A stretch of 64,000 bases of DNA from Acidimicrobiia bacterium (GTDB lineage Bacteria > Actinomycetota > Acidimicrobiia > Spongiisociales > UBA5794), in the NCBI GenBank assembly GCA_030431785.1, contig JAUIIM010000001.1, positions 3,323 through 67,322 on the forward strand, read 5' to 3'. Shown here one piece after another: positions 2,591 through 46,065 of this stretch. The notes beneath the pieces are model-generated. The model did no database searches and was not told where the DNA came from. It saw only the letters and a list, made by a program, of their open reading frames with translations. Every line of letters begins with the position of its first letter. Positions within the stretch are counted from its first letter, which is position 1. Both the position numbers and the translations under genes were made by a program.

Positions 2591-4108
2591 ATGACTGACG
2601 AGACGAAGAAGGACGCGACGGCGAAGTCCGAGGAGTCCAAGGACGAGAAGAAGCCTGAACCTCCTCACTTCGAGGATGCGCTGTCGACCACGCAGCACTC
2701 GATCGAGATCGATGGTGATCGGATCGGCTACACCGCAACGGCGGGTCGGATCGTCCTCAAGGAAGACGACGAAACGAAGAAGGCCTCGTTCTTCTTCACC
2801 GCCTACACGAAAGACGATCAGGATCCCGCGGATCGCCCGATCGTCTTTGCGTTCAACGGTGGCCCCGGTTCCTCGTCGGTCTGGCTCCACCTCGGGGTAT
2901 TCGGACCGAAGAAGGTCGTTCTGTCCGACGATGGCAACCTCGAGAAGCTTCCCGGGCAGTTGGAGGACAACCCACAGACGTTGCTGACCCATGCCGATCT
3001 GGTGTTCATCGATCCTGTCTCCACCGGCTACACCCGCGCGATCGAGAAGGACGAGGAACGTTCGTATCACCACTTCGAGAAGGACATCGAGTCCGTGGCT
3101 GCCTTCATCCGGATGTATCTCACCAGGTTCGGACGATGGTCATCACCGAAATTCCTCGGCGGAGAGTCGTACGGCACGACCCGTTCGGTGGGGCTCGCCG
3201 GTCATCTCATGTCGCGATATGGCATCTTCCTCAACGGAGTCATCCTCGTCAGCTCTGTGCTGAGCTTCCAGACCATCGGTCTCGACTCAAGTTCGTACAC
3301 GTTCCACAGAGGCAACGAACTGCCGTACGTCGTGTATCTCCCGTCCTACGCAGCGACCGCGTGGTTCCACAAGGCGCTCGATGAGGACCTCCAATCGAAG
3401 GAGCTGACGGAACTCTTGTCAGAGGTCGAGGAGTTCGCCGAGACGGACTACCTCTTGGCGCTCCAGGCAGGATCACGCCTCGATGCCGATAAGGCCGACG
3501 AGATCGCACAACGGCTTGCCCGCTACACGGGCATCGACAAGGACTTCGTGCAGAAGTCCAACCTCAGGATCGAGAAGTTCCACTTCATGAAGGAACTCCT
3601 GCGCGATGAAGGCTGGACCGTAGGCCGCCTCGACTCACGCTATCGCGGCGTCGACCGGTACACGGTCGGCTCGATGCTTGAGCACGATCCGTCTCTCGAC
3701 GTGTGGATGTCTCCGTACACGTCGATGTTCAACGACTACGTCAGACGTGAGCTCGAATACGAGAGCGACCTCGTCTACGAAATCCTCAACCCGAAGGTGT
3801 GGCCGTGGAACTACGAGAAGTTCCAGAACGCATACGTCGAAGTGTCCGAGACCCTGCGTGACACCATGTCGAAGAATCCGGGGATGCTCGTATACGTCGC
3901 AAGTGGCTACTACGACCTTGCCACCCCGTACTTTGCGACCGAGTACACGCTCGCCCACCTCGGCATTGAGGACGCACTGCGGGACAACATCGAGGTGTCG
4001 TACTTCGATGCCGGTCACATGATGTACGTGCACAAACCGTCCATCGAACGGCTAGGACCCGAGCTGCGGGCGTTCGTCGAGAAGGCGACTGCGTCGACAC
4101 AGGCGTAA
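2591..4108 (+). CDS. S10-family serine carboxypeptidase-like peptidase
   Basis: FAFNGGPGSSS and GESYGT motifs typical of peptidase S10. GAGGAG RBS before ATG 2591. Confidence 0.8.
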   Translation: MTDETKKDATAKSEESKDEKKPEPPHFEDALSTTQHSIEIDGDRIGYTATAGRIVLKEDDETKKASFFFTAYTKDDQDPADRPIVFAFNGGPGSSSVWLHLGVFGPKKVVLSDDGNLEKLPGQLEDNPQTLLTHADLVFIDPVSTGYTRAIEKDEERSYHHFEKDIESVAAFIRMYLTRFGRWSSPKFLGGESYGTTRSVGLAGHLMSRYGIFLNGVILVSSVLSFQTIGLDSSSYTFHRGNELPYVVYLPSYAATAWFHKALDEDLQSKELTELLSEVEEFAETDYLLALQAGSRLDADKADEIAQRLARYTGIDKDFVQKSNLRIEKFHFMKELLRDEGWTVGRLDSRYRGVDRYTVGSMLEHDPSLDVWMSPYTSMFNDYVRRELEYESDLVYEILNPKVWPWNYEKFQNAYVEVSETLRDTMSKNPGMLVYVASGYYDLATPYFATEYTLAHLGIEDALRDNIEVSYFDAGHMMYVHKPSIERLGPELRAFVEKATASTQA

Positions 4109-4192
4109 GTCAGAAGCCGGAACTCAGAAGTCAGACCACGGCGTCGGATCGATGATCGAGGATCGATCAAGGAGCGAGGCGACCGGTCGACT

Positions 4193-5758
4193 TCACTCCG
4201 TTCTCTGTTCTCCGTTGTCCGTTGTCTGCGACCTGAGGTAGCGAGCTACGGCCGCTGCGGCCGTCTTGCCTGAACCAACGGCGGGCGTCATACCCCCACC
4301 ACCGACCCACGCACCGGCGAGGAAGAGGTTCGGGATCGGCGTCCGGGGACTCCGTCGGAATCGCTGATTCACGACCGTCTGCTCCCGGCCGTACAGGGCG
4401 CCCTCGGGCTGGAGCATGTAGCGGGCGTTGGTCAACGGGGTTCCCACGTGGGCCGTGACGATCGAGTCACGGAGACCGGGAATACGCCGCTCGGCACGGG
4501 CGATGAGCTTCTCCGCAGCCTCCTGCTTGACACGCTGATACGACTCCTTCACCCGATAGTTCTCGAGGTCCCCGCCCGTACCCCACGCGTCACGATGATC
4601 CCACGGCGCAAGCGTCGTCAACACGAGCACGGTGCATCCGGCCGGGGCGTTGTCGGGGTCGGTCACGGTGTAGTTCGAGATGATCATGCCAGCGTCCTCG
4701 AAGCGTCCCTCGAGGGCCGCTGTGTAGTCGGCCTCGAGGTCGTACGTCGGCATGTCGAAGTACTCGTGATGGTCCCAACCCTCGGCCGCAAGATCGCGAT
4801 CAACCCCGAGGTGGACGACCAGGCTTGACAATGATGGTGTCTCCGACTGAGCGGTCTCTCCCCAGTCGCCGTCGACCAGGCCGTCGGGCAAGAGCGCGAG
4901 CGTCGATGTCGGGGAGGCATTCGAGACAACCGCACGGGCTCGGACAGTCAGCCCCTTGTTCGTCGTGACGACGACGCCTTCATCGGCCGGTTCGATGCGC
5001 TCTACATCGTTTCGGAAATGGATCTCGCCACCGTGCTCTTCGATGACCTCGGCGATGGCCCAGGTCATCGTTCCCGAACCACCGGTCGGATACCAGGCGC
5101 CCGCTGTCGTATACGAGAGGATGGTCATGGCGAACTGGCCAGCCGAGACCCGGGACGGCGGCAATCCGAGGTACCCCCACAGCGTGGAGACGAGCGCCTT
5201 CGCTTCTGGGGAGTCGAGATACTGGTCGATGAACACCGCCCATGGCACGTTGAACGCGACCGCCATGTCGGGGAAGTCGGTGAGCATCTCAGCGTCGTCC
5301 GGTCGGTGACCGCTTCGCCGGACCTCGGTGTATCGGGCGACGTCGTGCCCGACACGTTGGATCGCAGCGAAGAGCCCCCTGAAACCCGCTCCCTCTCCCG
5401 GCAGAACGTCCGAGGCGACGGCGGCGTATTGGTCGAAATCCGTGGGAATCGCCACCTCGAAGTCCGGGAATCCCACGGTGTAGAACGGATCGAGCTCGTT
5501 GAACTCGATTCGATCCATGATTCCGAGAGATTCGAACATGGGCCGAGCCCAACCGCCCTCTCCCAACCCGTCCAGTGCGTGCAACGCAACCTCGAACCGG
5601 AACTCCTCCTTGCGGAAGAAGTGTGCGTATCCGCCTGGCTTCGAGTGATGCTCGATGACGACGACCTTGTATCCGCGCTCTTGGAGATGCCGTGCGGCGG
5701 AGAGCCCCCCGAGTCCCGCTCCCACGATCACGACATCTGTTTCGATGTCGGGATTCAT
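4193..5758 (-). CDS. FAD/NAD(P)-binding oxidoreductase, phytoene-desaturase (CrtI-like) family
   Basis: N-terminal VVIVGAGLGGLSAARHL dinucleotide-binding motif. The start overlaps the upstream AI-2E gene stop (ATGA). Confidence 0.8.
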   Translation of the reverse strand: MNPDIETDVVIVGAGLGGLSAARHLQERGYKVVVIEHHSKPGGYAHFFRKEEFRFEVALHALDGLGEGGWARPMFESLGIMDRIEFNELDPFYTVGFPDFEVAIPTDFDQYAAVASDVLPGEGAGFRGLFAAIQRVGHDVARYTEVRRSGHRPDDAEMLTDFPDMAVAFNVPWAVFIDQYLDSPEAKALVSTLWGYLGLPPSRVSAGQFAMTILSYTTAGAWYPTGGSGTMTWAIAEVIEEHGGEIHFRNDVERIEPADEGVVVTTNKGLTVRARAVVSNASPTSTLALLPDGLVDGDWGETAQSETPSLSSLVVHLGVDRDLAAEGWDHHEYFDMPTYDLEADYTAALEGRFEDAGMIISNYTVTDPDNAPAGCTVLVLTTLAPWDHRDAWGTGGDLENYRVKESYQRVKQEAAEKLIARAERRIPGLRDSIVTAHVGTPLTNARYMLQPEGALYGREQTVVNQRFRRSPRTPIPNLFLAGAWVGGGGMTPAVGSGKTAAAAVARYLRSQTTDNGEQRTE

Positions 5759-8287: not shown

Positions 8288-8323
8288 ATTGTCGGAGCGC
8301 AGCGACCGTCCGATAGGGAGGGC
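8288..8323. repeat. single TGTCGGA-family octamer (GATTGTCGGA) plus related inverted copy CGACCGTCCGATAG
   Basis: Same motif as the tandem arrays at 11939, 15726 and 40683. Convergent intergenic region between the VIT gene and cobO. Confidence 0.4.
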
Positions 8324-11705: not shown

Positions 11706-11935
11706 GGTTGTCTCCCTTCGGTGGAGGAGCCAACCGTTGCGAGTCGTGACCCCTCCTCCGAAGGTCGCCTCGCCTGCCGGTGTGGAGGCGACCTGGCTTA
11801 CCTCGTTGCGAGGATCACAGTTGCGGGACAGCGCCGGTTTCTCACCGGACTTCGCTCCAAAACGGCACCCGGGTCATCCCGGTACGCACGTTCAAGCATA
11901 CAGACAGTTGCCGACATCACGTCTCAGACGGACTG
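11706..11935 (-). promoter_or_regulatory. cobalamin (B12) riboswitch
   Basis: Minus-strand sequence GGUGCC...GAAGUCCGGUGAGAAACCGGCGCUGUCCCGCAACUGUGA (B12 box) followed by GGUAAGCCAGG and an expression platform where CCUCCACC can pair with the GGGAGA RBS. Ends directly at the btuF-like ATG. Confidence 0.85.
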
Positions 11936-11938: not shown

Positions 11939-11968
11939 TGTCGGACTTTCGAATTGTCGGATTGTCAG
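11939..11968. repeat. degenerate TGTCGGA-family tandem array (TGTCGGAC..TTGTCGGATTGTCAG)
   Basis: Read directly. Divergent intergenic region 5' of the riboswitch. Confidence 0.6.
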
Positions 11969-12398
11969 TGCTAACCCGACATCTCGAGATTCTTGTCACC
12001 GATATCGTCCGGTCATGCGTTGTACCTACTGAGACCAACTTCGTGAGAGGTGAGGTGTGACGATTGCAGAACACACGGGCGAGCATGTCCCGATACGGGC
12101 GACGGCACGTGGCAAGGAGGACTTCTCGGTCTTCTACGAGCGCGAGGGGACGCAATCCAGGGTTGCGTCCCCTTCTCGTCTTAAACCTGATGGTGCCTAC
12201 CTCTACTCCAGCCCCTCCAGGCTCGCGGGCTCGCAGTCCCTCCTGGCGACAGCCGGTCTGCTCGACCGCCCGTCGCCTGTCCTCCCGCAAGGGGAGGACG
12301 CAAGTCAAGAGCGAATAGTGACGCCCTGCGTCCTCCCCCACTGTCCTCTGCTCGGTTCCGTGTCTTGCCAACCGGGATTCCGTTGTACCGTTCCTGTA

Positions 12399-13245: not shown

Positions 13246-15215
13246 TGCGACGACAGGTCACGCTCCTCGTCGCGGCAGTCGCGGTCGTGATGACGGCCTG
13301 TACGCCCTCATCGGACCCGGTCGAGACCACCACCACGCTGCCATCGGTCGCCGGCACGATCGATGCGCCCGAGTTCCCGCAAGGGATGGACTGGCTCAAC
13401 ACCGCAGCTCCCATCGCGATGAGCGACCTCAAGGGGAAGGTCGTCCTCCTCGACTTCTGGACCTACGGATGCATCAACTGCATCCACATCCTCCCCGACC
13501 TGCGACGCCTCGAGGAGGAGTTCGCCGAGGAATTGGTCGTGATCGGCGTCCACTCGGCGAAGTTCACGAACGAAGGTGCCACCGCGCAGCTGGCGGAAGT
13601 GGTCCAACGGTATGACATCACCCACCCCGTCGTGAACGACAAGGACTTCCTGATCTGGTCATCGTGGGGGGCGAACGCGTGGCCGACCGTCGCTGTCGTC
13701 GACCCCGCAGGGCGTGCGGTCGGGGTGCGTGCAGGCGAAGGGGTCTACGAAGCGATCCAACCGGTGATCGCACAACTCGTCGAAGAGTTCGATCGTGCCG
13801 ATGCCATTCGCCGTGAACCCCTCGAGCTGACACTTGAGGCAGAGTCCTCACCCTCGACTCCCCTCCGGTACCCCGGCAAGGTGCACGCGAGCGATGGACG
13901 TCTCTTCGTGGCAGACACCGGACACCACCGAATCGTGGAGGTCGATCCCGACACGGGCGAGGCGATCGGCGTGTGGGGATCGGGACAGCGCGGGTTCACC
14001 GACGGCGATGCCGCGACCGCTTCGTTCAGCGACCCACAAGGGCTTGCCTTCGACAGCTCCACGAGCGTCCTGTACGTCGCCGACGTCGGAAACCATTCGG
14101 TCCGATCGATCGACACTTCGACCGGGGAGGTCACGACCCTGGTCGGTGACGGCTCCCAGGGGTGGCCACCGACCGGTGGGACACTCGACGAGACAAGGCT
14201 CGCTTCACCATGGGCCCTCGAACTGGCCGAAGGACGACTCTTCGTCGCCAACGCGGGAACGCATCAAATCTGGTCGGTCGATCTCGATCGCGGCCTCGCA
14301 GAGCCGCTGATCGGCTCCGCCAGGGAGGGAACGCTGAACGGGCCGTTCGCCACCTCCGAACTCGCTCAGCCGAGTGGTCTCGCCCTCTCCGACGACGGAA
14401 AGCTCTACTTCGCCGACTCCGAATCCAGCTCAGTGCGGGTAGGGGACCTCGCCAACGGGCAGACATCCCTCGTCGTCGGCGGTGACGAAACACTCTTCGA
14501 CTTCGGAGATCTCGACGGCTCGGGCAACGAAGCCCGTCTCCAGCATCCTCTCGGTCTCGCGTTCGGTAGCGCCGGCGTCCTCTACGTGGCTGACACGTAC
14601 AACTCGAAGATCAAGCGCATCGACACAGGAACCGGAACCGTCACGTCATGGCTCGGCTCGGAACCGGGGTGGGCGGATGGAGATGCACCACTGTTCGACG
14701 AGCCCGGGGGCCTCGCTTTCGACGGCACGACCCTCTGGGTCGCCGATACGAACAATCACTCGCTCCGAACCATCGACCCGGTGACGGGAACTGTCAGTAC
14801 GTTGATCGTCACCGGCCTCGAGAAGTTCGAACCACCAACTTCCTACGCCGGTCCGGTCACCGAGATCGCAGGGTCCATCACCGCTTCGGCGGGACCGGGC
14901 ACGATCACGCTGGACTATGCGTTGCCCGACGGACACAAGGTGAACCCCGATGCGCCGTCGGCGGTGTCGATCACCGGCATCGGGATCGAACTGGCCGGAG
15001 ACGGTGACCTTACGGGCGCATCCTTGCCCATCGACGTGCCGGTCGAGTTCAGCGAGGGCTCGGGCGACGCCTACATCGACGTCAACCTCGTGTATTGCGC
15101 CGAGGAAGCGGAGAGCCTCTGCTTCATTGACCGAATGCGCTTCGTCGTGTCCCTCGTCGTAGGTCCGGCGGGCCCATCGAGCCAGATCACGATCGGGCGC
15201 GACGTGGAGAACTAG
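13245..15215 (+). CDS. secreted/lipoprotein thioredoxin-like (TlpA/ResA redoxin) domain fused to NHL-repeat beta-propeller
   Basis: Lipoprotein signal (...VVMTACTPSS), LLDFWTYGCINCIHILP CxxC redoxin motif, then about six NHL-type repeats (GHHRIVEVD, VADVGNHSVRSID, VANAGTHQIWSVD...). Confidence 0.85.
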   Translation: MRRQVTLLVAAVAVVMTACTPSSDPVETTTTLPSVAGTIDAPEFPQGMDWLNTAAPIAMSDLKGKVVLLDFWTYGCINCIHILPDLRRLEEEFAEELVVIGVHSAKFTNEGATAQLAEVVQRYDITHPVVNDKDFLIWSSWGANAWPTVAVVDPAGRAVGVRAGEGVYEAIQPVIAQLVEEFDRADAIRREPLELTLEAESSPSTPLRYPGKVHASDGRLFVADTGHHRIVEVDPDTGEAIGVWGSGQRGFTDGDAATASFSDPQGLAFDSSTSVLYVADVGNHSVRSIDTSTGEVTTLVGDGSQGWPPTGGTLDETRLASPWALELAEGRLFVANAGTHQIWSVDLDRGLAEPLIGSAREGTLNGPFATSELAQPSGLALSDDGKLYFADSESSSVRVGDLANGQTSLVVGGDETLFDFGDLDGSGNEARLQHPLGLAFGSAGVLYVADTYNSKIKRIDTGTGTVTSWLGSEPGWADGDAPLFDEPGGLAFDGTTLWVADTNNHSLRTIDPVTGTVSTLIVTGLEKFEPPTSYAGPVTEIAGSITASAGPGTITLDYALPDGHKVNPDAPSAVSITGIGIELAGDGDLTGASLPIDVPVEFSEGSGDAYIDVNLVYCAEEAESLCFIDRMRFVVSLVVGPAGPSSQITIGRDVEN

Positions 15216-15661
15216 CCGAGCGTTTGTTCGACAGTTTGCTCGTCGGAGATCGTCGACGTGGACCCGTTCGTGGGAACGTGCACGACGGGTCGTGGGCGCT
15301 GCGGCTCCGTCTCCACCGTTTCTTCGAGCGTGATGAATTCGATCCCGCCGACGACGTCAGACACCATGTTGTAGAGGATCGCAACGAGCGTGAGCAGCGC
15401 CGTCGCACCGATCACCCAGAGGATCGCAAGCATCAGCACGACCCGGAAGTACAAGTCACCATCAGGGGAGAACGCGATGGTGAGTCGACCGAGCATGTCG
15501 GCAAAGTCGTCCGGGATGCCGCGCTGGACCGCGATCGACCATGCGACCCAGATGCCGAGGGTCCAGATGAGTCCGATGACAAGGTTGATCAGGAACCCGG
15601 CCTTCAGGACGGTCCACGGATCCACCTTGCGAATGATGCGACGCACACGACGAATCGCCAT
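15212..15661 (-). CDS. DUF3566-like conserved membrane protein (Rv0007-like, downstream of gyrA)
   Basis: Start taken at MAIRRVRRIIRK (ATG 15661) with a GGAAGGAG RBS; two TM segments; conserved position after gyrA in Actinobacteria. Confidence 0.75.
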   Translation of the reverse strand: MAIRRVRRIIRKVDPWTVLKAGFLINLVIGLIWTLGIWVAWSIAVQRGIPDDFADMLGRLTIAFSPDGDLYFRVVLMLAILWVIGATALLTLVAILYNMVSDVVGGIEFITLEETVETEPQRPRPVVHVPTNGSTSTISDEQTVEQTLG

Positions 15662-15725: not shown

Positions 15726-15757
15726 CGATTGTCGGATTGTCGGATTGTCGGATTGTC
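15726..15757. repeat. perfect tandem array 4 x GATTGTCG (TGTCGGAT family)
   Basis: gattgtcggattgtcggattgtcggattgtcg, between the gyrA stop and the DUF3566 start. Confidence 0.9.
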
Positions 15758-15781
15758 GGACCGAAGGGCCGGGCCGTCGGC

Positions 15782-18211
15782 CTAGTCCTCGTTCTGTGCG
15801 ATGGCGAGGGCGGTGAGGGTTGCTCCGTCGGCAAGGCTCATGACCTTGACCCCGGTGGTGTCCCTCCCCTGGCGTGAGATCTCCTTGGCGCCCTGACGGA
15901 TCACGATGCCGTCCGAGGACGTCATCACGACCTCGTGGTCCTCCGTCACGGCACGGGCCGCAGCGACGAGACCACGAACCTTCGTGAGCTTCATCGCCTT
16001 CACGCCCTTGCCGCCACGACCTTGCGTGCGGAAGTTCGAGACCTTGGTGCGCTTGCCGTAGCCACCGGTCGTCAGGATGAGCACGTCCTCCTCGTCATCG
16101 GCGACTGCCGCGGCGACCACCGAGTCCTCCTCATCCTTGAGGCGGATCCCGATCACCCCCTGGGAAGCACGGCCTGTCGGGCGGACGTCATCCTCGGAGA
16201 AGCGGATGCCTTGCCCGTTGCGGGTGAACATCATCAGATCCTTCTCGCCATTGGTGCGGCGCACGGCTACGACCTCGTCGTCATCCTTGAGGTTGATCGC
16301 AACGAGCACTTGATTTCGTGAGTCGTAGTCGGCGAACTTGGACTTCTTGACCATGCCGGACTTGGTGAACATCACGAGATACTTGTACGACTCGTAGTCG
16401 CGGGTATCGATGATCGCCTCGATCCGTTCGTCCGCCTCCAGGGGGAGGACGCTCTGGATGAGCGACCCGCGCGCAGTGCGGTCCTTCCTGGGCAATTCGT
16501 GTGCACGTACTCGGTAGACCTTGCCGCGATTCGTGAAGAACAGCAGATAGGCGTGGGCGGACGTGTGGAGCAGGTGCTCGATCACATCCTCTTCTTTCAG
16601 GTTCGAGCCCTTCACGCCGCGTCCGCCGCGTCCTTGCCTCCGGTAGGAGGATGCGAGCACAGACTTCACGTATCCGGAGGAGGTGACGCTCACGACGAGT
16701 TCTTCGTCCGCGATCATGTCCTCCAACGACATCGTCCCGGTGTCCGGGATGATCCTGCTACGCCGCGAGTCCGAGAACTTCTCCCGGATCTCCGTCAGCT
16801 CCTCGCTGATGAGCAGACGGCGCTTCTCCTCGTTCGCCAAGAGGTCGTTGAGGTAGGCGATCGTCGCTTCGAGCTCCTCGAGTTCCTCGCGCAGCTTGTT
16901 CGTCTCGAGTGCGGTCAGGCGACGAAGCGGCATGTCGAGGATGTGGTTCGCCTGGATCTCGGAGAGGTCGAAGTTCTCCATCAACGCAGTACGTGCCGCA
17001 TCGACGTTCGCCGACGAACGGATGATGCGGACGACTTCGTCGATGTTGTCCAGGGCGATGAGCAAGCCACGGACGATGTGCGCCCTCGCCTCTGCCTTCT
17101 CGAGACGGAACCGTGAGCGTCGCTCGATGACCTCGAGCTGATGGTCGACATAGTGATGGACGAGCTGTGCGAGGTTGAGTGTGCGGGGGACTCCGTCCAC
17201 GAGCGCGACGTTGTTGACCGAGAACGAGTCCTCCAGCTGACTGTGCTTGAAGATCAGGTTCTGGACGACCTGGACGTTGGCACCACGCTTGAGTTCGATC
17301 ACCATGCGCGTCCCATTACGGTCGGATTCATCGCGAAGGTCCGAGATGCCCTCGATCACCTTGTTGCGGACCGCATCCGCGATCTTCTCCATGACACGGT
17401 CGCGGGACACCTGATACGGGATCTCGGTGATGACGATGGCATGTCGGTCCTTACCGATCTCCTCGACATCGGTGACGGCACGCATCTTGATCGAGCCGCG
17501 TCCCGTCAGGAGGGCGTCCTTGATGCCCTTGTCACCGACGATGTAGGCACCCGTCGGGAAGTCTGGACCCTTGACGAACTCCATCAACTCCTCAGCCGAG
17601 GCGTCCGGATGATCGAGTGCATGGAGGACCGCGTCACATACCTCGCCGAGGTTGTGTGGAGCCATGTTCGTCGCCATACCGACGGCGATACCGGTGGAAC
17701 CGTTGACGAGAAGGTTGGGGAATCGGGCGGGGAGCACTTGCGGCTCGTCGCGCTCACCCGAGTAGTTGTCCACGAAGTCGACGGTGTCCTCGTCGATCCC
17801 ATCCATCATGTGCGCAGCAAGCTTGGCGAGCCGAGCCTCGACGTAGCGCATCGCCGCAGGCGGATCGTCGACCGTACCGAAGTTCCCCTGCGGATCGATC
17901 AACGGATACCGAAGAGCGAAGTCCTGTCCCAAACGCACCATGGAGTCGTACACGGCCTCGGGAGAGTGCGGGTGGAACCAACCAACGACATCACCGACCA
18001 CACGGGAGGCCTTGCGATAGGGGGTTCCGGGCCGGATGCCGCTGTCCCACATCGAGTACATCACGCGGCGGTGCACCGGCTTCAGGCCATCACGAACATC
18101 CGGGAGGGCACGCGAGACGATGACGGACATCGCATACTCGAGGAACGAGTCGCGCATCTCCTGGTTGATGTCGATCGCTTGGAACTCTTCTTGTATCGGT
18201 TCTTCAGGCAT
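15782..18211 (-). CDS. gyrA: DNA gyrase subunit A
   Basis: Full-length GyrA homology ([23 protein letters not shown]; C-terminal beta-pinwheel). Confidence 0.97.
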
Positions 18212-18241: not shown

Positions 18242-20206
<1,965 letters not shown>

Positions 20207-22973: not shown

Positions 22974-24362
22974 TCATCTTGTCCTCAGCTGTTGGGTGAT
23001 CTCCGTGACCTGGTCATAGATGTCCTTGTCGGTCTGGAGGAGATTGGTGATCTTCTCGACGGCGTGCATCACCGTCGTGTGGTCCCGGCCGCCGAAAGCT
23101 GCACCGATACGTGGCAGAGAGAGACCCGTCTGCTCACGACAGATGTACATGGCGACCTGGCGATGCCGAGCGAGAGGCTGTCGACGTGAGGGCCCCAGAA
23201 GCTCGGAGCGTGGGACCTCGTAGTACTGGCTCACGGTCCCGATGATCGAGTCAGCGGTCAGCGGGGCTGCCTGCTGGAGCTGGACGACGTCACGGAGAAC
23301 GTTCGCCGCGAGGTCGACCGTGACGGGCTCGGACGTCAGCTTGGCGAACGCCGTCACTCGGGTGAGTGCTCCCTCGAGCTCTCGGACGTTCTCGGCGATG
23401 TTCTCGGCGATGAAACCCAGCACCTCCTCGGGGATGCGCTGGTCACCCATCGCAGCGTTCTTGCGGAGGATGGCAAGGCGTGTCTCTACGTCAGGTCGTT
23501 GGATGTCCGTCGTGAGACCCCACTCGAACCGGCTGCGGAGTCGATCCTCGATCGTACGCAACTCCTTTGGAGCGCGGTCGGACGAGATCACCAACTGATT
23601 GCCGGCCTCGTACAACGAATTGAACGTGTGGAAGAACTCCTCGAGCACCATCTCCTTGCCCTCGAAGAACTGGACGTCGTCGAGGAGCAGGATGTCGACC
23701 TTGCGGTAGCGCGCCTTGAAGTCGTCCATCTTCTTGCGACGGATCGAATTGATGAAGTCGTTGAAGAACGTTTCCGAGGTCACGTACTTGACGACGGCAC
23801 CGGGAGACAGTTCGAGGCGGTGTTGACCCACGGCGTGGAGTAGGTGGGTTTTGCCAAGCCCGGATCCTGCGTAGATGAACAGAGGGTTGTAGTGGCGACC
23901 GGGTTTCTCGGCGACGGCCTGGGCGGCTGCGTGGGCGAATCGATTCGACGATCCGACGACGAAGTTGTCGAACGAGTAGCGGGCGAGCAGGTTCGAGGTG
24001 TCAGAGGGGGACGGCGGTTCGTCGATCCGGGAACCGATGTGATCGTCGAGGGAGGGTTGATATGGGCCCTCATCCTCAAGGGCCTCGGTTGCTTTCTTCT
24101 CGTTGACCGAGATCGTGACCTCGAACTTTCCCGACCACACCGATGAGGCGATCTCCCCGATCTGGTGGGTGTAGTTGTCCCGAACCCACGAGGCGTTGAA
24201 GCGATTCGGGGCTTCGAGCCTCAGGACGTCGTCGTCCCGCTCGACATCGAGCGGTTTGATCCAGGTTTCCCACTTCGCAGCGCCGATCACGTCGCGCATT
24301 CTGCTGTGGAAAAGCTCGATCTTCGAGTCCACCGTCTCGGGACTCGCTTGTGTAGCAGCCAC
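22974..24362 (-). CDS. dnaA: chromosomal replication initiator DnaA
   Basis: AAA+ Walker [13 protein letters not shown]; C-terminal DNA-binding domain. Confidence 0.97.
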
Positions 24363-27404: not shown

Positions 27405-27440
27405 GCGACTCAGTACGGAGTACTCAATACCAGTACACAG

Positions 27441-27473: not shown

Positions 27474-27489
27474 TGTTTCACGTGAAACA
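27474..27489. other. parS centromere-like site (TGTTTCACGTGAAACA, perfect consensus)
   Basis: Matches the ParB-binding palindrome read directly; upstream of rsmG-parA-parB. Confidence 0.85.
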
Positions 27490-27543
27490 CTGCTGAGTAC
27501 ACAGTGCCCAGTACTCAGGTCCCCAGAACCCAGAGGCAGCCGT

Positions 27544-27559
27544 TGTTTCACGTGAAACT
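27544..27559. other. parS site (TGTTTCACGTGAAACT, 15/16)
   Basis: Second copy about 70 bp from the first. Confidence 0.8.
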
Positions 27560-27567
27560 TCGTGGAG

Positions 27568-27603
27568 ACGAAGGGATGAAAGGACGAAGGGACGAAGGGA
27601 CGG
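27568..27603. repeat. octamer tandem array ACGAAGGG x4 (GAAGGGAC family)
   Basis: acgaagggatgaaaggacgaagggacgaagggacgg; reverse-complement family of the array at 48700. Confidence 0.85.
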
Positions 27604-27610
27604 CATGCTA

Positions 27611-27676
27611 GCCAGGAGCCAGGAGCCAGGAGCCAGGAGCCGGGAGCCGGGAGCCGGGAGCCAGCAGCCAGGAGCT
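27611..27676. repeat. heptamer tandem array GCCAGGA/GCCGGGA, about 9-10 copies
   Basis: gccaggagccaggagccaggagccaggagccgggagccgggagccgggagccagcagccagga. Confidence 0.9.
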
Positions 27677-29986: not shown

Positions 29987-30008
29987 AACCCGATCGATGA
30001 TCCATGAT
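29987..30008. repeat. GATC-rich heptamer array ATGATCC x3
   Basis: cgatcgatgatccatgatccatgatcagg; shares 20 nt with 40658-40680. Confidence 0.8.
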
Positions 30009-30046
30009 CCATGATCAGGTGTCTGTAGGCGGTAAGCCGGTCGACC

Positions 30047-35472: not shown

Positions 35473-36207
35473 CTACTCAGCCCGGAGTACGGCCAACGTC
35501 TCCGGGAGGAGGACATACCCCTCACTGTCGTACAAGGAGATGGCCGGGGTGTTCTCTGCTTGCGTGTTGAGCAGCATTGCTTTCGACCCTGAACGCTTTG
35601 CCGCCCGTGCAGCCGCCCTGATGAGGCTTCGTCCCATGCCTTGACCTTGCCAGTCCGGATGCACGGCGACCCGTTGGAGGTACGAGATGGCGTGCCCGTA
35701 TCCGACGATCGCATAGCCGGTGCACCCGCCAGCACCGTCGGCGATGACGAACAGGTCGGCTTTCGCTGTGGCATTGAGCGCCTCAGCTATCGCCGTGCCG
35801 TCGAACTGCCAGAACGAGGCGAACGCTGCCATGTCGATTTCGAGCAACTCTGCGGTGGAGACCTCCCGGTCCCGGTGTACGAGGTGGTCGGGACCCGGGA
35901 TGTCTCGGTCGAGGGACAGACGAAGCAAGGCCAGGTCGATCGAAGGGACAAAGCCTGCTGCTTCCCACGCTTTGCGGGCCGACATCGCGAGTGGCGTGGA
36001 GAGGATTGCGGGTGCGCCCAGATCCCGGAGACGATTGACACAATCCTCCAAGAACGCCGAGCCGCCGCGGATCAGCCGGAGGTGTGCCTCCGGGTGCGAC
36101 GCGTTCCATGGACGCGCCTCGGACCGAGCCCAGCCGCGTCGAAGCGAGACGGCACCGGGCCAGGTACCACGTTGGAACACGCGATGTGAGGTGTCTGTCA
36201 GAGCCAT
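35473..36207 (-). CDS. GNAT family N-acetyltransferase
   Basis: C-terminal acetyl-CoA binding fold (QRVAVHPDWQGQGMGRSLI); start at MALTDTS (36207). The rest of the 531-aa track ORF is a shadow of the plus-strand HDAC gene. Confidence 0.75.
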   Translation of the reverse strand: MALTDTSHRVFQRGTWPGAVSLRRGWARSEARPWNASHPEAHLRLIRGGSAFLEDCVNRLRDLGAPAILSTPLAMSARKAWEAAGFVPSIDLALLRLSLDRDIPGPDHLVHRDREVSTAELLEIDMAAFASFWQFDGTAIAEALNATAKADLFVIADGAGGCTGYAIVGYGHAISYLQRVAVHPDWQGQGMGRSLIRAAARAAKRSGSKAMLLNTQAENTPAISLYDSEGYVLLPETLAVLRAE

Positions 36208-36261
36208 GGGCCCCCTCCGTCGGACTTGGCGCTGTGCCGGTAGCGTAGCGACCGTTGCGAG

Positions 36262-37299
36262 GTGCCTCATCCGTGGCACAATCAGACGATGCCTTTGCAT
36301 CTTGCGACGCACTCCTCCAGTTTGGAGCACCACACACCGCGAGGTCACCCCGAACGCGTCGATCGGATCACGGCGGTCACCGGGGCGCTGCGGTCGGGTG
36401 CGGTTGATGTCCTCGAGCTGGATGCTCCGAAAGTGCACGAGGACCTGCTTGCCTCCGTGCATTCCCGTTCCTATCTGGAGTCGGTCCGCACCTTCTGCTC
36501 CTCCGGAGGAGGGTCCCTCGATCCTGACACCTACGTCGTCCCTGCCTCCTATGAGGCAGCGCTCCACGCAGCAGGTGCAGGACCCGCACTCGTGAACCGG
36601 ATGCGAACCCATTCCGGCCCCGGATTCGTGGCGGTCCGCCCTCCGGGTCATCACGCCGAGCGCGATCGTGCGATGGGGTTCTGCTTGTTCAACAACATCG
36701 CAGTCACCGCCAAGTTCCTTGCGGAGATGGGTCAGCGGGTTGCGATCGTCGATTGGGATGTCCACCACGGCAACGGCACCCAGAACACCTTCTTCAAGGA
36801 TCCTTCCGTCATGTATGTGTCGTTGCACGAGTTCCCGTTCTATCCGGGGACAGGGTGGGTCTCTGAGCTTGGAGAAGGGGACGCCGTGGGGACGACGATC
36901 AACATCGCGCTCCCGAACGGCACCACGTCGACCGACTACCTGGCTGCGTTTCGACAGCTTGTGCTGCCTCCCGTTCGCCAGTTCGATCCGTCCTGGATCC
37001 TCATCAGCAACGGTTACGACGCCCACGTCGATGATCCACTCGGTGGCCTCCGGTTGGAGTCGGAGCACTACGGGTGGATGGCGGCAGCACTCTGCGACAT
37101 CGTCCCGAGTGACCGCATTGTCGCCTTCCTCGAAGGAGGCTACGACCTCGGTGCGCTTGAGAGCGGATCGATCGCTACTGCCCGGGGTCTACTCGGTGCC
37201 TATGGCGACTTCGAGCTCCCCGACGAGGTCGTCGGGCAGGCGCGGCGTGTGACCGACATGGCAGCCGACCTGATCTCCCGGCACTGGGATCTCGGTTAA
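36262..37299 (+). CDS. histone deacetylase/acetoin utilization (HDAC/AcuC) family protein
   Basis: PPGHHAE...GFCLFNNIA...DWDVHHGNGTQ...LEGGY motifs; the ATG at 36288 is an alternative start. Confidence 0.85.
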   Translation: MPHPWHNQTMPLHLATHSSSLEHHTPRGHPERVDRITAVTGALRSGAVDVLELDAPKVHEDLLASVHSRSYLESVRTFCSSGGGSLDPDTYVVPASYEAALHAAGAGPALVNRMRTHSGPGFVAVRPPGHHAERDRAMGFCLFNNIAVTAKFLAEMGQRVAIVDWDVHHGNGTQNTFFKDPSVMYVSLHEFPFYPGTGWVSELGEGDAVGTTINIALPNGTTSTDYLAAFRQLVLPPVRQFDPSWILISNGYDAHVDDPLGGLRLESEHYGWMAAALCDIVPSDRIVAFLEGGYDLGALESGSIATARGLLGAYGDFELPDEVVGQARRVTDMAADLISRHWDLG

Positions 37300-37362
37300 G
37301 GAGGGGCGAAGCTCCGCCGATACATCGGCATAGCACTGTTCGTCGCGAGAAAGCCACCCTCA

Positions 37363-38448
37363 ATGTCACAGGAAACCCCCACGCTCGAAGAGATGCTCGA
37401 GCGTTTGCTCAAGGTCGGGGGTTCTGACCTCCACCTGAAGGTCGGCTCACCTCCGACGTATCGCATCGACGGCTCGCTTCAGAGGGCCGATCTGCCGTCC
37501 CTTACCGCAGATCGCACCGAGCAACTCCTCGAAGCGATGCTTCCCGCACACCTCGAGCGTCCGGGTCCGGGCCACGACATCGACTTCTCCTGGGGACGGT
37601 CGGATCTCGGCCGGTTCCGCGTGAACTCCTATACACAACGCGGTTCGGTGAACATCGTCGTGCGCTCGGTTCCACAGGTGACAGAACGGTTGCCCGACCT
37701 CGGCCTTCCTCAAGCGGTTGCGAAACTGTGCAACGCCCAAAGTGGACTGATCGTCATCGCTGGTCCGACAGGTGCAGGCAAGACGACGACCTCCGCTGCC
37801 ATCCTCGACGAGATCAACCGGACGCGGCCGGCAAGCATCATCACGATCGAGGATCCGATCGAGGTCCTCCACACCGATCAGCAGTCGATCGTGTCCCAGC
37901 GCGAGGTCGGACTCGACATCGGTTCTCTCGCCGAGGGGATGCAGAGTGTCGTGCGCCAGGACTGCGATGTTGTCTACCTCGCAGAGATGCGGGACCGTGC
38001 AACCATCGAGGAAGCCCTCGTCGCGGCCGAGACCGGTCACCTGGTCATCACCACGATGTACACGATGGATGCGGTCGAGACCGTGCATCGCATCCTTGAC
38101 TCCTTCCCGCCGTACCTCGAGCGCCGCATCCGCCAGATGCTCGGGACGTCACTCACCGCGATCGTTGCCCAGCGGCTGCTGCCGAGCAACGACGGATCCG
38201 GGCGGGTACCCGCCGTTGAGCTGATGCTCAACACGGAGGCGACCCGAGATCGCCTGCTCGGTGTCGAGCCGATGGACACGTTGTACGAGACGATCGCGGA
38301 AGGCGGCTTCTACGGGATGCAGACACTCGACCAGGCGATCGTGCAGCTGTACGAGGCAGGAAGGGTCACGTTCTCGGATGCACTCATGTACGTTGCATCG
38401 CCACGCGAGTTCAAGCTAGCGACCGGTTCACTCACCTCCATGGGGTAG
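37363..38448 (+). CDS. pilT: type IV pilus twitching-motility ATPase PilT
   Basis: GPTGAGKTTT Walker A and PilT signature; about 360 aa. Confidence 0.9.
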   Translation: MSQETPTLEEMLERLLKVGGSDLHLKVGSPPTYRIDGSLQRADLPSLTADRTEQLLEAMLPAHLERPGPGHDIDFSWGRSDLGRFRVNSYTQRGSVNIVVRSVPQVTERLPDLGLPQAVAKLCNAQSGLIVIAGPTGAGKTTTSAAILDEINRTRPASIITIEDPIEVLHTDQQSIVSQREVGLDIGSLAEGMQSVVRQDCDVVYLAEMRDRATIEEALVAAETGHLVITTMYTMDAVETVHRILDSFPPYLERRIRQMLGTSLTAIVAQRLLPSNDGSGRVPAVELMLNTEATRDRLLGVEPMDTLYETIAEGGFYGMQTLDQAIVQLYEAGRVTFSDALMYVASPREFKLATGSLTSMG

Positions 38449-38534
38449 AAGACTCGATCTACGACCGCGAGCCTCGAGTGTTGCGGACCGAGACGAAGCA
38501 GGTCGTGCGCCGGTAGCGGAACTATCGTCCGTCC

Positions 38535-39137
38535 ATGCCTGATTTCTCTTGTGCCGATTGCGGCGACGGTTTCTCGCTGCCTCAGCACGTTCTCGACCGG
38601 TATCCGGGGTGGACACCCAACAAGTGCCGGTCGTGTCGAGACGCAAAGAAGACCTCGGCTACCGGTAGCCGCCCCCGGAAACCCGCCGAGATCGTCGATG
38701 ATCCACAGGAGGGCGTCTTCACCGACGGCAGCTCGGTCCCGAATCCTGGGCCGGGCGGCTGGGCGGCGGTTCGTGTCGTCGACGGGGTGGAGGTCGATTC
38801 GCTCTCCGGATCGCATCCGGACACGACCAACAACCGCATGGAGCTCGAGGCGCTCATTCACGCCGTGGACCTCGTACCCGAGGGCGAGTCGGCGACCATC
38901 TATTCCGACTCCAATCTTGCCGTGCAGACGATCAACGAGTGGGCCGCAGGATGGAAAAGGCGTGGGTGGAAGCGGAAGTCGGGACCCGTGGAGAACCTGG
39001 ATCTCGTAAAGGTGGCATTCGAGAAGTACCAGGAACGACCCGAGTTGGAGCTTGTGTGGATTCGTGCCCATGTCGGGTTCACATGGAACGAACGAGCCGA
39101 CGAGTTGGCCAACATGGCACGGGAGACCGGACGATGA
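38535..39137 (+). CDS. rnhA: ribonuclease HI with N-terminal CxxC...CxxC zinc-ribbon-like extension
   Basis: CADC...CRSC, then the RNase H fold (TDGSSVPNPGPGGWAAV; NNRMELEAL; YSDS; HVGFTWNERADELA). Confidence 0.8.
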   Translation: MPDFSCADCGDGFSLPQHVLDRYPGWTPNKCRSCRDAKKTSATGSRPRKPAEIVDDPQEGVFTDGSSVPNPGPGGWAAVRVVDGVEVDSLSGSHPDTTNNRMELEALIHAVDLVPEGESATIYSDSNLAVQTINEWAAGWKRRGWKRKSGPVENLDLVKVAFEKYQERPELELVWIRAHVGFTWNERADELANMARETGR

Positions 39138-40549
39138 GCGGTATTCGCCTTGCCCGCATCGTCGACGACCGGGTCCGTGAACTCGCGGCAGCGTTTGCCG
39201 ACGAAGGGTTCTCGCTCTACCTCGTCGGCGGTTCGGTGCGCGATGCGCTGCTCGGACGTGCAGTGTCGGACCTCGACTTCACCACCGACGCCAGACCCGA
39301 CGAGATCGAACGAATCGGTTCGGAGTGGGCGTCGAGCATCTTCACCGCAGGCAAGGAGTTCGGGACGATCGGCCTCGTCCGCGATGGTCAGACGTACGAG
39401 GTCACAACATTCCGGTCGGAGATGTATCGGGACGATTCGCGCAATCCGGTTGTTTCGTTCAGCAACAGCCTCGAAGAGGACCTGAGCCGGCGGGACTTCA
39501 CGGTCAACGCCATGGCACTGCGGATTCCGCCCGACGACGCCGAGGACCCCGAGATGATCGATCCACACGGTGGGTTGACCGATCTCACCGGTCGTCTGCT
39601 ACGGACACCCCAGGACCCCGAGGTGTTGTTCTCCGACGATCCGCTGCGCATGCTTCGCCTGTTCCGGTTCATGTCGACGTTGGAGTTCGACCCCGACCCT
39701 GAAGCGCTGGCTGCGGTCCGAGCCATGTCACCTCGCCTGTCGATCATCTCCCGTGAACGGATCAGGACCGAACTCGACAAGCTCATCGTCGGTCCCGGTG
39801 TAGTCGCCGCCCTGACAGAGCTGGTCGTCTCCGGTCTTGCGGACGAGTTCATCCCGGAGGTGCCGGCGTTGGCTGTCGAGCAGGACCCGATACACCGACA
39901 CAAGGACGTCCTGGAGCACTCGATCATCGTGACTGCCCAGGCCGACGCACATCTCGACGAGCCCCGACTCGTCGTCCGGCTTGCTGCGCTGTTGCACGAC
40001 ATCGGAAAGCCCGCGACCCGCGAGTACGTCAAGGGCGGGGTCACGTTCCACCACCACGAGGTGGTGGGTGCCCGCATGGCCCGCAAACGGTTGAAGGAGC
40101 TGCGGTATCCGAAGGACATCGTCGAGGACGTCTCCAAGCTCGTGTTCCTCCACATGCGTCCGCACACGTTCAAGATGGGATGGTCCGACTCAGCGGTTCG
40201 TCGCTATGTCCGGGACGCGTCACCATTGGTCGACGAGCTGAACAGCTTGGTCCGGGCCGATGTCACGACCGGAAATGAACGCCGCGCACGACAGATCTCC
40301 CGGCGTATCGACGAGCTGGAGGAACGGATCGAGATCCTTCAGCAGCAAGAGGAGCTCGATGCGCTCCGTCCCCCGATCGATGGAAACCAGGTGATGGAGT
40401 ACCTCGGGATTCCGCCGTCTCGCACGGTCGGCGACATCATGGACATGCTCCTTGAGCGTCGTATCGAGGAAGGCCCCTATTCGGAGGAAGATGCCTTTGC
40501 GATGCTCGACGACTGGTCCGACCGCCAGGAGCGGTCAGACCAGTCGTAG
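39134..40549 (+). CDS. cca: CCA tRNA nucleotidyltransferase / poly(A) polymerase family (HD domain)
   Basis: LYLVGGSVRDALLG, then DLDFTT, and an HD domain; ATG 39134 overlaps the rnhA stop (ATGA). Confidence 0.85.
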   Translation: MSGIRLARIVDDRVRELAAAFADEGFSLYLVGGSVRDALLGRAVSDLDFTTDARPDEIERIGSEWASSIFTAGKEFGTIGLVRDGQTYEVTTFRSEMYRDDSRNPVVSFSNSLEEDLSRRDFTVNAMALRIPPDDAEDPEMIDPHGGLTDLTGRLLRTPQDPEVLFSDDPLRMLRLFRFMSTLEFDPDPEALAAVRAMSPRLSIISRERIRTELDKLIVGPGVVAALTELVVSGLADEFIPEVPALAVEQDPIHRHKDVLEHSIIVTAQADAHLDEPRLVVRLAALLHDIGKPATREYVKGGVTFHHHEVVGARMARKRLKELRYPKDIVEDVSKLVFLHMRPHTFKMGWSDSAVRRYVRDASPLVDELNSLVRADVTTGNERRARQISRRIDELEERIEILQQQEELDALRPPIDGNQVMEYLGIPPSRTVGDIMDMLLERRIEEGPYSEEDAFAMLDDWSDRQERSDQS

Positions 40550-40550
40550 C

Positions 40551-40590
40551 TGCTGGCTGCTGGCTGCTGGCTGCTGGCTGCTGGCTTCTC
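40551..40590. repeat. heptamer tandem array GCTGCTG x5
   Basis: gctgctggctgctggctgctggctgctggctgctg, immediately after the cca stop. Confidence 0.9.
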
Positions 40591-40660
40591 TCTTGCAATC
40601 GCCGTGCGAGATCGGACCACGGCGGGCGACCAGCGGCGCGCTCAGACACCGATCGATGAT

Positions 40661-40681
40661 CCATGATCGATGATCGAGAAC
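40661..40681. repeat. GATC-rich heptamer array ATGATCS x3
   Basis: atgatccatgatcgatgatcg. Confidence 0.8.
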
Positions 40682-40682
40682 G

Positions 40683-40722
40683 TCCGACAATCCGACAATC
40701 CGATAATCCGACGATCCGACGT
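40683..40722. repeat. octamer tandem array TCCGACAA x5 (reverse complement of the TTGTCGGA family)
   Basis: tccgacaatccgacaatccgataatccgacgatccgacgt. Confidence 0.9.
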
Positions 40723-40781
40723 ACCGGGGTGGGAGCAAGGAGCTAGGAGCGCTCCCTGGCCAAGGATCGGCCTCGCCCCCA

Positions 40782-40810
40782 TATACGCATAACTCTGCTG
40801 TATGCGTATA
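40782..40810. promoter_or_regulatory. candidate ArgR operator (ARG-box-like palindrome TATACGCATA-N9-TATGCGTATA)
   Basis: Perfect 10-bp inverted arms with a 9-nt spacer overlapping the argC start region; argR is encoded in the same operon. Confidence 0.45.
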
Positions 40811-41842
40811 CTCGCTCACATGTATACAGCAGCCGTGCTCGGCGCTTCCGGGTACGGCGGTGGCGAGCTCATCAGATTCCTCGATGGACATCCGGAGTTC
40901 TCCGTGTCCGTCCTCACTGCTCACTCGAAGGCGGGACAACGCCTCGGCGATGTCCACCCACACCTTTCGGGAGGGGATCGGGAACTCGTCCCCTTCGATC
41001 CCGACGTATGTGACGTCGATGTCGCCTTCCTTGCCCTTCCCCACGGTGCCTCGTCGGGACCCGCGATGGCGCTCCTCGAACGGGGTGTGCGTGTGGTCGA
41101 CCTCGGTAGCGATTTCCGACTCGACAGCCCTGAGCGATATCTCGCTGCCTACGGAACGGAGCATCCCTATCCGGACCAGCTGGGGGCCTGGGCGTACGGG
41201 CTCCCCGAACTGTTCATCGACGACATCGTCGTCTCGGACCGGGTCGCTGCGCCCGGGTGCTACCCAACATCGGCGATCATCCCGATCGCTCCACTGATCG
41301 GTGGACTCGTCGAGACAAGAGGGATCGTGGTCGACTCGATGTCCGGAGTCTCCGGCGCAGGACGTGCGGCGACCGACGGGCTCCGATTCGGATCGATCGA
41401 CGAATCCGTCAAGGCATACAAGGTGCTCGAGCACCGCCACCAACCGGAGATGCGACAGGCGCTCTCGGCGGTTTCGGGTGCAGATGTCCGTCTTGTGTTC
41501 ACCCCCCATCTCGTTCCGATGCAGCGCGGCATCCTTTCGACCATCTACCTCACACCGACCGCCGGTACCTCGCTTGCAGATGTGCACGATGCGTTCGATG
41601 CGATGTACGAGGGTGCTTCGTTCGTCCGTCGCAGCGCCGTACCGCCGGAGACCAGGTGGGTCGTCGGATCGAACAATGCGCTCGTCTCGTACCACCTCGA
41701 TGCTGAGGAGGGTGTCCTCGTCGCTGTATGTGCAATTGACAACCTCGTGAAGGGTGCCGCCGGACAGGCGGTGCAAAGCGCGAATGTGATGTTCGGATTC
41801 GCACAAGAGACCGGACTCCCGACCGAAGGATGGATGCCGTGA
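40802..41842 (+). CDS. argC: N-acetyl-gamma-glutamyl-phosphate reductase
   Basis: AVLGASGYGGGELIR NAD-binding N-terminus; the start is more likely ATG 40820 (MYTAAVLG). Confidence 0.9.
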   Translation: MRILAHMYTAAVLGASGYGGGELIRFLDGHPEFSVSVLTAHSKAGQRLGDVHPHLSGGDRELVPFDPDVCDVDVAFLALPHGASSGPAMALLERGVRVVDLGSDFRLDSPERYLAAYGTEHPYPDQLGAWAYGLPELFIDDIVVSDRVAAPGCYPTSAIIPIAPLIGGLVETRGIVVDSMSGVSGAGRAATDGLRFGSIDESVKAYKVLEHRHQPEMRQALSAVSGADVRLVFTPHLVPMQRGILSTIYLTPTAGTSLADVHDAFDAMYEGASFVRRSAVPPETRWVVGSNNALVSYHLDAEEGVLVAVCAIDNLVKGAAGQAVQSANVMFGFAQETGLPTEGWMP

Positions 41843-42738: not shown

Positions 42739-43193
42739 GGGGCGACACCGGGATGCGGCGCCGCCGAATACGCGCACTGATCGGCGAGATGGACATCTCG
42801 ACCCAGGACCGTCTCCGCGACGCTCTCGGTGCCGAAGGATTCGACGTGACACAGGCGACGGTGTCGCGCGATCTGTCGGCACTCGGTGCGAGACGCGTCA
42901 AAGAGGACGGCGAGTTTGTCTACCGGATCGTTGCGGAGGAACCGGGTGCGGCTGCCGTCGCCGCCCTTCGAGACGCTTTCGAAGAGTTCGTGGAACACAC
43001 CGACATCTCAGGGAATCTCATCGTCCTGCGGGTCCCACCGGGTGCTGCTCACCTCGTGGCGAGTCGTATCGATGAAGCCCGTGTGGAAGGCGCGCTCGGA
43101 ACGGTTGCCGGGGACGACACGATCCTCGTCGTGGCCGACGAGCAGGTAGGTCCGGCAGAAGTCATCAACAGAATGCAAGGAACGAGTCGATGA
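42735..43193 (+). CDS. argR: arginine repressor
   Basis: Winged-helix N-terminus (TQATVSRDL) and a C-terminal oligomerisation domain about 150 aa long. Confidence 0.85.
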
Positions 43194-44407: not shown

Positions 44408-44409
44408 TC

Positions 44410-45801: not shown

Positions 45802-45818
45802 GCGTCTCACTTGTTCGC

Positions 45819-46007: not shown

Positions 46008-46040
46008 GTGCACAACGTATCGACAGGGTGTGACAGATTT

Positions 46041-46065
46041 GCGGCTCCGCAGGCCTGCGGAGCCG
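46041..46065. repeat. perfect hairpin GCGGCTCCGCAGG-cc-TGCGGAGCCG
   Basis: Read directly. Confidence 0.6.

Follow-up and report, generated by a model that had tools for sequence, protein, structure and literature searches.

Octamer arrays near the replication origin of an Acidimicrobiia genome are probably one unit family of slippage-prone intergenic repeats

A perfect tandem array of the octamer ATCCGACA, repeated 4.25 times (15727–15760, minus strand; TRF score 68), occupies the spacer between gyrA and a DUF3566 gene in an Acidimicrobiia MAG, and raises the question of whether such repeats are recognition sites for a protein or the product of slippage in weakly constrained DNA. Read in the TGTCGGAT register, the array contains three exact copies plus TGTCGGAC, with period 8. 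It is part of the window, the whole stretch of 64,000 nucleotides that we analysed, which covers the replication-origin (oriC) region, with ~62% G+C and a coding share of at least 82%. The minus strand carries dnaA (22974–24362), dnaN, recF and a DciA-family gene, as well as gyrB (18242–20164), gyrA (15782–18211, with its stop at 15782) and the DUF3566 gene (15212–15661, with its start at 15661), and to the right of the dnaA region are rsmG-parA-parB (from 27699) and the arg operon (argC at 40802). The window contains no tRNA and no Rfam family at the gathering threshold. Where homologues of the DUF3566 protein are named, the label is that of an Acidimicrobiia MAG, and the exact protein is on record only in NCBI and in Logan assemblies of a few sequencing runs.

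The initial annotation had placed the octamer at five intergenic loci, four of which hold. Besides 15727–15760, these are an array of five units with 90% matches between the CCA-adding enzyme gene and argC (40682–40721, plus strand, where the units read TCCGACAA, TCCGACAA, TCCGATAA, TCCGACGA and TCCGACG); an ATCYGACA-family array of five to six decayed units (46159–46201, plus strand; C-to-T variant units ATCCGACC, ATCTGACA, ATCTGACA, ATCTGACC and GTCTGGCC) upstream of a cupin gene (ATG at 46218); and a degenerate ATCCGACA-family array of ~4 units with 75% matches upstream of a BtuF-like gene (11939–11970, minus strand). The two-unit probe ATCCGACAATCCGACA, allowing up to 3 mismatches, produced 15 matches at six loci, as compared with 1.31 ± 1.10 in dinucleotide shuffles, and this count was reached in none of 100 shuffles. 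Four of the six loci are the intergenic octamer arrays, and the other two are intragenic matches with 3 mismatches, at chance level. The fifth proposed locus, at 8288–8323, has just a single 7/8 copy and a loose inverted partner, also at chance level. Within the window, enrichment is a property of the tandem probe and not of the octamer as a single word (6 matches versus 4.65 expected, four of the six within arrays). As the initial annotation had stated, all four confirmed octamer loci are outside called genes, and their period is off helical periodicity (8 bp versus ~10–11 bp for helix-phased operators).

The distance from the array end to the start codon is 65 nt at 15727, ~80–100 nt at 40682, 17 nt at 46159 and 235 nt at 11939. 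In all four cases ATCCGACA reads on the sense strand of the downstream gene and on the leading strand relative to oriC, a coincidence with a p of only ~0.1 and in which sense and leading-strand effects are confounded. Hairpin potential, evaluated by RNA and DNA folding, was not above that of shuffles, and a promoter consensus scan around two arrays returned no promoter-like site. The lone terminator-like match near the arrays was discarded, because it is the hairpin of a CTGCTGG array itself and not an independent terminator. Neither ATCCGACA nor TGTCGGAT has a GGG run, which leaves the octamer outside the G-quadruplex SSRs, in which each unit contributes a run of at least three G and four units can form a G4. 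The 15727 array was recovered in four independent Logan assemblies with an identical flank and at least 3.5 units, indicating that it is no assembly artefact; every contig broke inside the array, as expected for a perfect array in k=31 graphs.

Octamer arrays account for the smaller part of a broader set of arrays with period 7 or 8, most of which have other units and had escaped the initial annotation. Using TRF (score ≥40, period ≤12), we detected 15 arrays in the window versus 0–3 (~1) in 30 dinucleotide shuffles, and 11 of the 15 have period 7 or 8. Of 14 arrays, weaker ones included, 13 have no overlap with called genes, and spacers of all three kinds (tandem, divergent and convergent) contain arrays; the sole genic array (CTCCGTT ×4, 4196–4223) is located at the very 3′ end of its gene. 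The spacer at 40549–40750 consists almost wholly of four different arrays, in which the octamer array is accompanied by a perfect CTGCTGG ×5.4 (40549–40586), beginning at the stop codon of the CCA-adding enzyme gene, a sibling array of GATCGATG/ATCCATG ×3.9 (40649–40677) and GGAGCWA ×2.7, with SD-like AGGAG units (40732–40750). Upstream of rsmG are GGGACGAA ×4.5 (27567–27602) and AGCCAGG ×9.4 (27610–27675), and between uppS and ppc is TCCCTTCG ×14.5 (48717–48839), the reverse complement of the GGGACGAA unit. GATCCAT ×3.6 (29990–30016) is located between the convergent parB and peptidoglycan-binding protein genes, and GATCGAT ×3 (4145–4177) likewise between convergent genes, so that neither spacer holds a promoter that an array might tune. 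All of these sibling arrays are given as read on the plus strand.

The arrays share a vocabulary of units. ATCCGACA is found at four loci, GGGACGAA at 27567 and, as its reverse complement, at 48717, AGCCAGG/AGCCAGC at 27610 and 40549, and GATCGATG/ATCCATG (GATCSATG) at 4145, 29990 and 40649. The 20-mer CCGATCGATGATCCATGATC is identical in the 40649 array and at 29990–30009, and in the compound array at 40649–40721 units of ATCGATG, ATCCATG and ATCCGACA adjoin each other. Twelve pairs of arrays share a unit within one mismatch versus 0.94 expected, and none of 2,000 random draws reached 12. The recurrence of few units at different loci indicates that their seeding or spread is non-random.

Other sequences accompany the arrays in these spacers. 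On the minus strand, 48717–48839 reads GGGA(N)AA ×15, with 15 GGG tracts and 5-nt loops, directly upstream of ppc; from its sequence it would qualify as a canonical G-quadruplex motif, and its unit recurs at 27567–27602 upstream of rsmG. A look-up for sizing the 48717 array in other strains found no uppS product on record identical to that of the window. A pair of parS sites (TGTTTCACGTGAAACA; one is perfect, the other has a single mismatch, and chance expectation is 0.01) is present at 27474–27489 and 27544–27559, interleaved with repeat arrays just upstream of rsmG-parA-parB. The GTTTCACGTGAAAC motif in the window is parS; a Bifidobacterium origin, to which this motif had at first pointed, was discarded, as DUF3566 homologues assign the window to Acidimicrobiia. 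Motifs of the GAGTACTCAGTAC type have 10 matches versus 0.63 expected, at 54075–54103, 27413–27430, 27495–27507 and 54136–54148, and at the first of these positions they form the perfect 20-bp palindrome AGTACTCAGTACTGAGTACT. These motifs look more like an operator family than a microsatellite.

Comparison of strains revealed a rapid turnover of the arrays. Contig L066 shows 99.55% identity to 36035–40521 of the window and 98.9% to 40801–47076, and in it the 279 bp at 40522–40800, with four arrays including the octamer array, are replaced by an unrelated segment of 96 bp with another heptamer array, CGACGAA ×4.3. A contig of another sample breaks exactly at the boundary of this hypervariable argC spacer. 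The C-terminal tail of the CCA-adding enzyme also differs between strains (L066 4488–4527 versus window 40522–40549) and in L066 is partly encoded by the CGACGAA array, indicating that repeat turnover reaches 3′ gene ends; the CTCCGTT array at 4196–4223 is a similar case. Paired ARG-box-like palindromes (TATACGCATA ... TATGCGTATA) overlap the argC start (window 40782–40815, L066 4565–4598); argR belongs to the same operon as argC, and the left ARG box, at the edge of the hypervariable segment, varies between strains. Transcripts of argC may be leaderless, with TATACT ~7 nt before the ATG at 40820.

The initial annotation had also called for a comparison of copy number between strains. Pure copy-number change was found in the sibling heptamer array AGCCAGG, whereas the octamer family showed presence or absence and SNPs within units, its 15727 contigs breaking inside the array. 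Contig L068 is 99.97% identical to the window over the adjoining 3.6 kb, yet has AGCCAGG ~×2.6 in place of ×9.4, and at the 27567 site it contains GGGATGAA units in place of GGGACGAA. The cupin-proximal array has an equal copy number between strains. Three of the five SNPs in 241 nt around this array are in it or adjoining it, and they swap ATCCGACA and ATCTGACA, indicating that the variant is a mutational decay of one unit and, as first proposed, a member of the family. Directly upstream of this array, a 34-bp unit (AGACCGCTCGGCTGTTGCCTCGCTCAAAGATGCA) is repeated 1.9 times (46066–46131), and sister strains keep it with one SNP.

We then compared orthologous spacers of more distant relatives. 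The octamer array was absent from the gyrA-DUF3566 spacer of L057 (DUF3566 82% identical), L054–L056, L189 and L191 (74%). The spacer is 120 nt in the window and 84, 72, 81 and 116 nt in L057, L189, L191 and L054–L056, respectively; those of the relatives are thus shorter by 4 to 48 nt, and by 36–48 nt in the three most compact, and the 34-nt array explains the excess only with respect to these three (L057, L189 and L191). A −10-like TAGGCT and the SD are conserved in the relatives, which places the 15727 array ~17 nt upstream of the inferred −35. L057 has a 7-bp array of another unit, ACAGAGG. A flank-anchored metagenome scan for the 15727 locus returned no match.

The 11939 array is roughly 70–100 nt upstream of an AdoCbl riboswitch (11775–11867, minus strand; 47 bits, E=2.5e-7, just below the Rfam gathering score of 50), which precedes genes for the BtuF-like binding protein, FecCD, an ABC ATPase and a CobA adenosyltransferase. 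L189 and L191 both retain the riboswitch with strong conservation. Where the window has its degenerate array, L191 contains CTGACGA ×5.1 and AATCGGA ×2.7, and L189 has no arrays. A look-up with BtuF returned the same strain only. The arrays of other units in L057 and L191 show that the clade shares a proneness to repeats, and not their units or positions.

To examine the octamer beyond this genome, we scanned a collection of 185,579 species genomes, to which that of the window does not belong, for TGTCRGAT ×3. This yielded 49 stretches in very diverse phyla, two of them in the Acidimicrobiia MAGs L021 and L026 as ATCTGACA ×3 upstream of genes, a share near expectation; metagenomes contained at least 120 stretches. 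In viral contigs the target octamer had one match and composition-matched control octamers had five and none; with such small numbers, controls were about as common, suggesting that the octamer itself is not special. The notable point is its recurrence within one genome. By eye, arrays worldwide had seemed to stand in sense orientation just upstream of starts, an impression that did not survive a mechanical test of 101 non-redundant arrays drawn from many phyla (14 sense-only, 7 antisense-only, 78 neither; p=0.19). Classification by ORFs only was too noisy for use in high-GC contigs.

Three other settings of the octamer emerged from these scans. In L026, another Acidimicrobiales MAG, octamer arrays at 3683–3725 abut in inverted orientation (ATCTGACAATCTTACAAT|ATTGTCAGATTGTCAGATTGTCAGAT) as a long palindrome. 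Low-GC (34–41%) metagenome contigs (L069–L188) contain 45 inward-facing pairs of the form (ATCCGACA)2–5 ... (TGTCGGAT)2–5 and no outward-facing ones, with a spacing of 388–396 bp in most and 213–246 bp in a few (for example, L097 6245–6683, L082 2929–3372 and L118 10081–10520). The interior of these pairs is 75–95% conserved in 24 aligned copies, and conservation falls outside the arrays, so that they look like a putative MITE-like multi-copy element of ~0.44 kb with tandem octamer termini; Rfam returned nothing for it. By comparison, the window has no inward-facing inverted pairs and no conserved core adjoining its arrays. Finally, Microcoleus genomes (L003, L004, L020, L028, L030, L040 and L045) contain (A/G)TCCGACA arrays of up to 23 units, with variants, followed by the conserved hairpin-containing sequence GGGAATGAATTCCCTGTCTCATAGCTAAAGTC..., suggesting an element-associated repeat.

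Between the two origins initially put forward, slipped-strand microsatellites and sites for a lineage-specific DNA-binding protein, the change from ×9.4 to ~×2.6 in AGCCAGG and the presence or absence and unit mutation of the octamer favour the first. In our view, the octamer arrays probably represent one unit family among long simple sequence repeats (LSSR) that are shaped by slipped-strand events in weakly constrained spacers. Microsatellites of 7–8 bp would arise, expand, contract and decay by slipped-strand mispairing, with small-scale recombination probably contributing to their turnover. We infer that the arrays lack a sequence-specific function and would be hypermutable filler, not recognition sites; their only likely effect would be incidental, by altering DNA length or sequence upstream of promoters or in leaders. 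The shared vocabulary and the 20-mer common to 29990 and 40649 argue against simple independent slippage. Reuse of units would most probably reflect both biased seeding from favoured oligomers (ATC/GAC/CGA-rich) and mutations that, within compound arrays, turn units of one type into those of another.

Alternatively, the shared vocabulary could be due to an active, sequence-selective process, either repeat-spreading recombination or transposition or a repeat-binding protein, in place of passive slippage. Such a process is suggested by units and a 20-mer that are identical across loci, by wholesale spacer swaps at ~99% identity and by the octamer termini of the mobile-looking element. We regard it as unlikely, if worth keeping in mind; were it true, intergenic spacers would be programmable, hypervariable cassettes in a free-living bacterium.

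The arrays might also be tandem operator or upstream sites for a lineage-specific regulator or nucleoid-associated protein, with one octamer per monomer, that modulates the adjacent promoters. The octamer recurs at four promoter-containing spacers, its vocabulary is non-random and ATCTGACA ×3 precedes genes in L021 and L026; moreover, the 15727 and 11939 arrays are placed alike with respect to the inferred transcription start (roughly −50 to −85), which could reflect a weak upstream-element role. However, arrays are not kept at orthologous promoters of relatives, the argC array is dispensable in the sister strain, SNPs decay the units and two Acidimicrobiia in 49 genome matches is close to what would be expected. 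The neighbours are unrelated (DUF3566, btuF, argC and cupin), and argC has its own ARG boxes; the distance from array to start or promoter varies between loci, and arrays of unrelated units are distributed alike. Operators and iterons have conserved orthologous sites and phasing of ~10–11 or 17–22 bp, whereas here the sites are absent in relatives and the 8-bp period would present successive sites on different helix faces. Together, non-conservation, dispensability, unit decay, 8-bp phasing and variable placement make a dedicated DNA-binding protein unlikely enough for us to give it little weight.

An origin of the arrays as the footprints or termini left by a small mobile element, or by recombination that spreads repeats, would explain the shared units but is quite improbable. 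The 45 inward-facing pairs around the ~0.44 kb element in low-GC contigs and the conserved hairpin sequence adjoining the Microcoleus arrays point in this direction, as do the limited vocabulary, the identical 20-mer at two window loci and the 279-bp segment that behaves as a strain indel. Nevertheless, arrays in the window are single, those in opposite orientation being ~25 kb apart and facing outward, and no conserved sequence adjoins them. Likewise, the excess of the gyrA-DUF3566 spacer over that of nearer relatives roughly equals the array alone, and in an unsystematic look we noticed no transposase gene adjoining arrays.

Still more doubtful is a function in RNA, with the C/A-rich, unstructured AUCCGACA repeats in 5′ UTRs binding S1, Csp or Csr-type proteins or keeping the ribosome-binding site open, a role of the sort proposed for the TAACTGA repeats of Beggiatoaceae (PMC4679880). 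In addition to this precedent, folding predicts no structure in the repeats, ATCCGACA reads in the sense direction of the downstream gene at all four loci and 17 nt separate the end of the 46159 array from the ATG. However, the 15727 and 11939 arrays are upstream of the conserved −10-like element, and are thus probably not in the gene's own transcript; the argC array is 80–100 nt from the start, arrays are not conserved and the 101 arrays from many phyla had no significant sense bias (14 versus 7, p=0.19). Such a role is possible for the cupin array only. Lastly, chance similarity or assembly artefact has next to no likelihood and is refuted for the four main loci: the single octamer is unenriched and 8288–8323 is at chance level, but 15 matches versus 1.3, 15 TRF arrays versus ~1 and independent assemblies that reproduce the arrays contradict it.

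The reading that we prefer, slippage-prone repeats in weakly constrained spacers, agrees with repeats described elsewhere. The initial annotation considered recurrent short tandem motifs unusual for bacterial chromosomes; this has to be tempered, since several genomes, high-GC and cyanobacterial ones, are known to have dispersed families of 5–11 bp SSRs (PMC4692102, PMC4679880). According to the account in PMC4679880 of Mrazek et al. 2007, some non-pathogens of high G+C, Actinobacteria among them, have an excess of 5–11 bp repeats, and of heptamers in particular. In the same study, as summarised in PMC4679880 and PMC4692102, LSSR whose unit length is not divisible by 3 occur only in non-coding DNA, Actinobacteria rank with the genomes richest in LSSR and units near 7 bp are favoured. 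The window arrays resemble LSSR in being head-to-tail short units beyond chance, 13 of 14 of them outside genes, and differ in having a focal unit of 8 bp and an uncultured Acidimicrobiia as host.

In Xanthomonas (GGGAATC) and Nostoc (GGGGAYT), one unit is dispersed over many intergenic loci, typically with ~4 units (Rehm et al. 2015, PMC4692102); close relatives differ widely in array length and sequence, neighbours belong to all functional classes and a function was not demonstrated (PMC4692102). Our arrays share with them the dispersed unit, the variability between strains and the lack of a functional pattern among neighbour genes, but those units have G-tracts and form G-quadruplexes, whereas ATCCGACA lacks G-tracts. 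In the window, G4-type sequence is confined to the sibling GGGACGAA arrays (27567 and 48717), a parallel to the Xanthomonas GGGAATC. The TAACTGA heptamers occur at many loci in distant phyla, including Beggiatoaceae, Cyanobacteria and Bacteroidetes (MacGregor 2015, PMC4679880), and, as in the window, there are compound spacers, relatives with shorter repeat-free spacers and contigs ending in repeats (PMC4679880). Most sets of TAACTGA are found a few nt from the start codon; of the four octamer arrays, just the one at 46159 comes near a start. The cyanobacterial STRR heptamers of Calothrix PCC 7601, as cited in PMC4692102, comprise a small vocabulary at many chromosomal sites. They are similar to our arrays in this small vocabulary of short tandem units, and differ in consisting of other heptamers in another phylum.

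Phase-variation SSRs of host-adapted pathogens have mostly 1–7 bp units situated in ORFs, promoter spacers or leaders of surface and virulence genes. By analogy, slippage-driven changes in length near promoters could alter expression here as well; in contrast, neighbours in the window are housekeeping or metabolic genes, and two of the four octamer arrays are upstream of the inferred core promoter (−35). Judging by these likenesses, the kind of repeat appears to be one already described in other bacteria, and the Acidimicrobiia lineage and the 8-bp unit to be what is new.

If this reading is right, an uncultured Acidimicrobiia and an 8-bp unit would join the short list of bacteria with dispersed 5–11 bp SSRs. 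Simple independent slippage does not explain the restricted vocabulary of units, a puzzle common to all such families. The strain-resolved evidence indicates that spacers turn over on a time-scale of 0.03–1% flank divergence, and the arrays are natural high-resolution strain markers. Short-read MAGs also become fragmented at these repeat sites, since each perfect array ends a contig in the Logan assemblies. Finally, the arrays warn against taking recurrent intergenic motifs for regulator sites.
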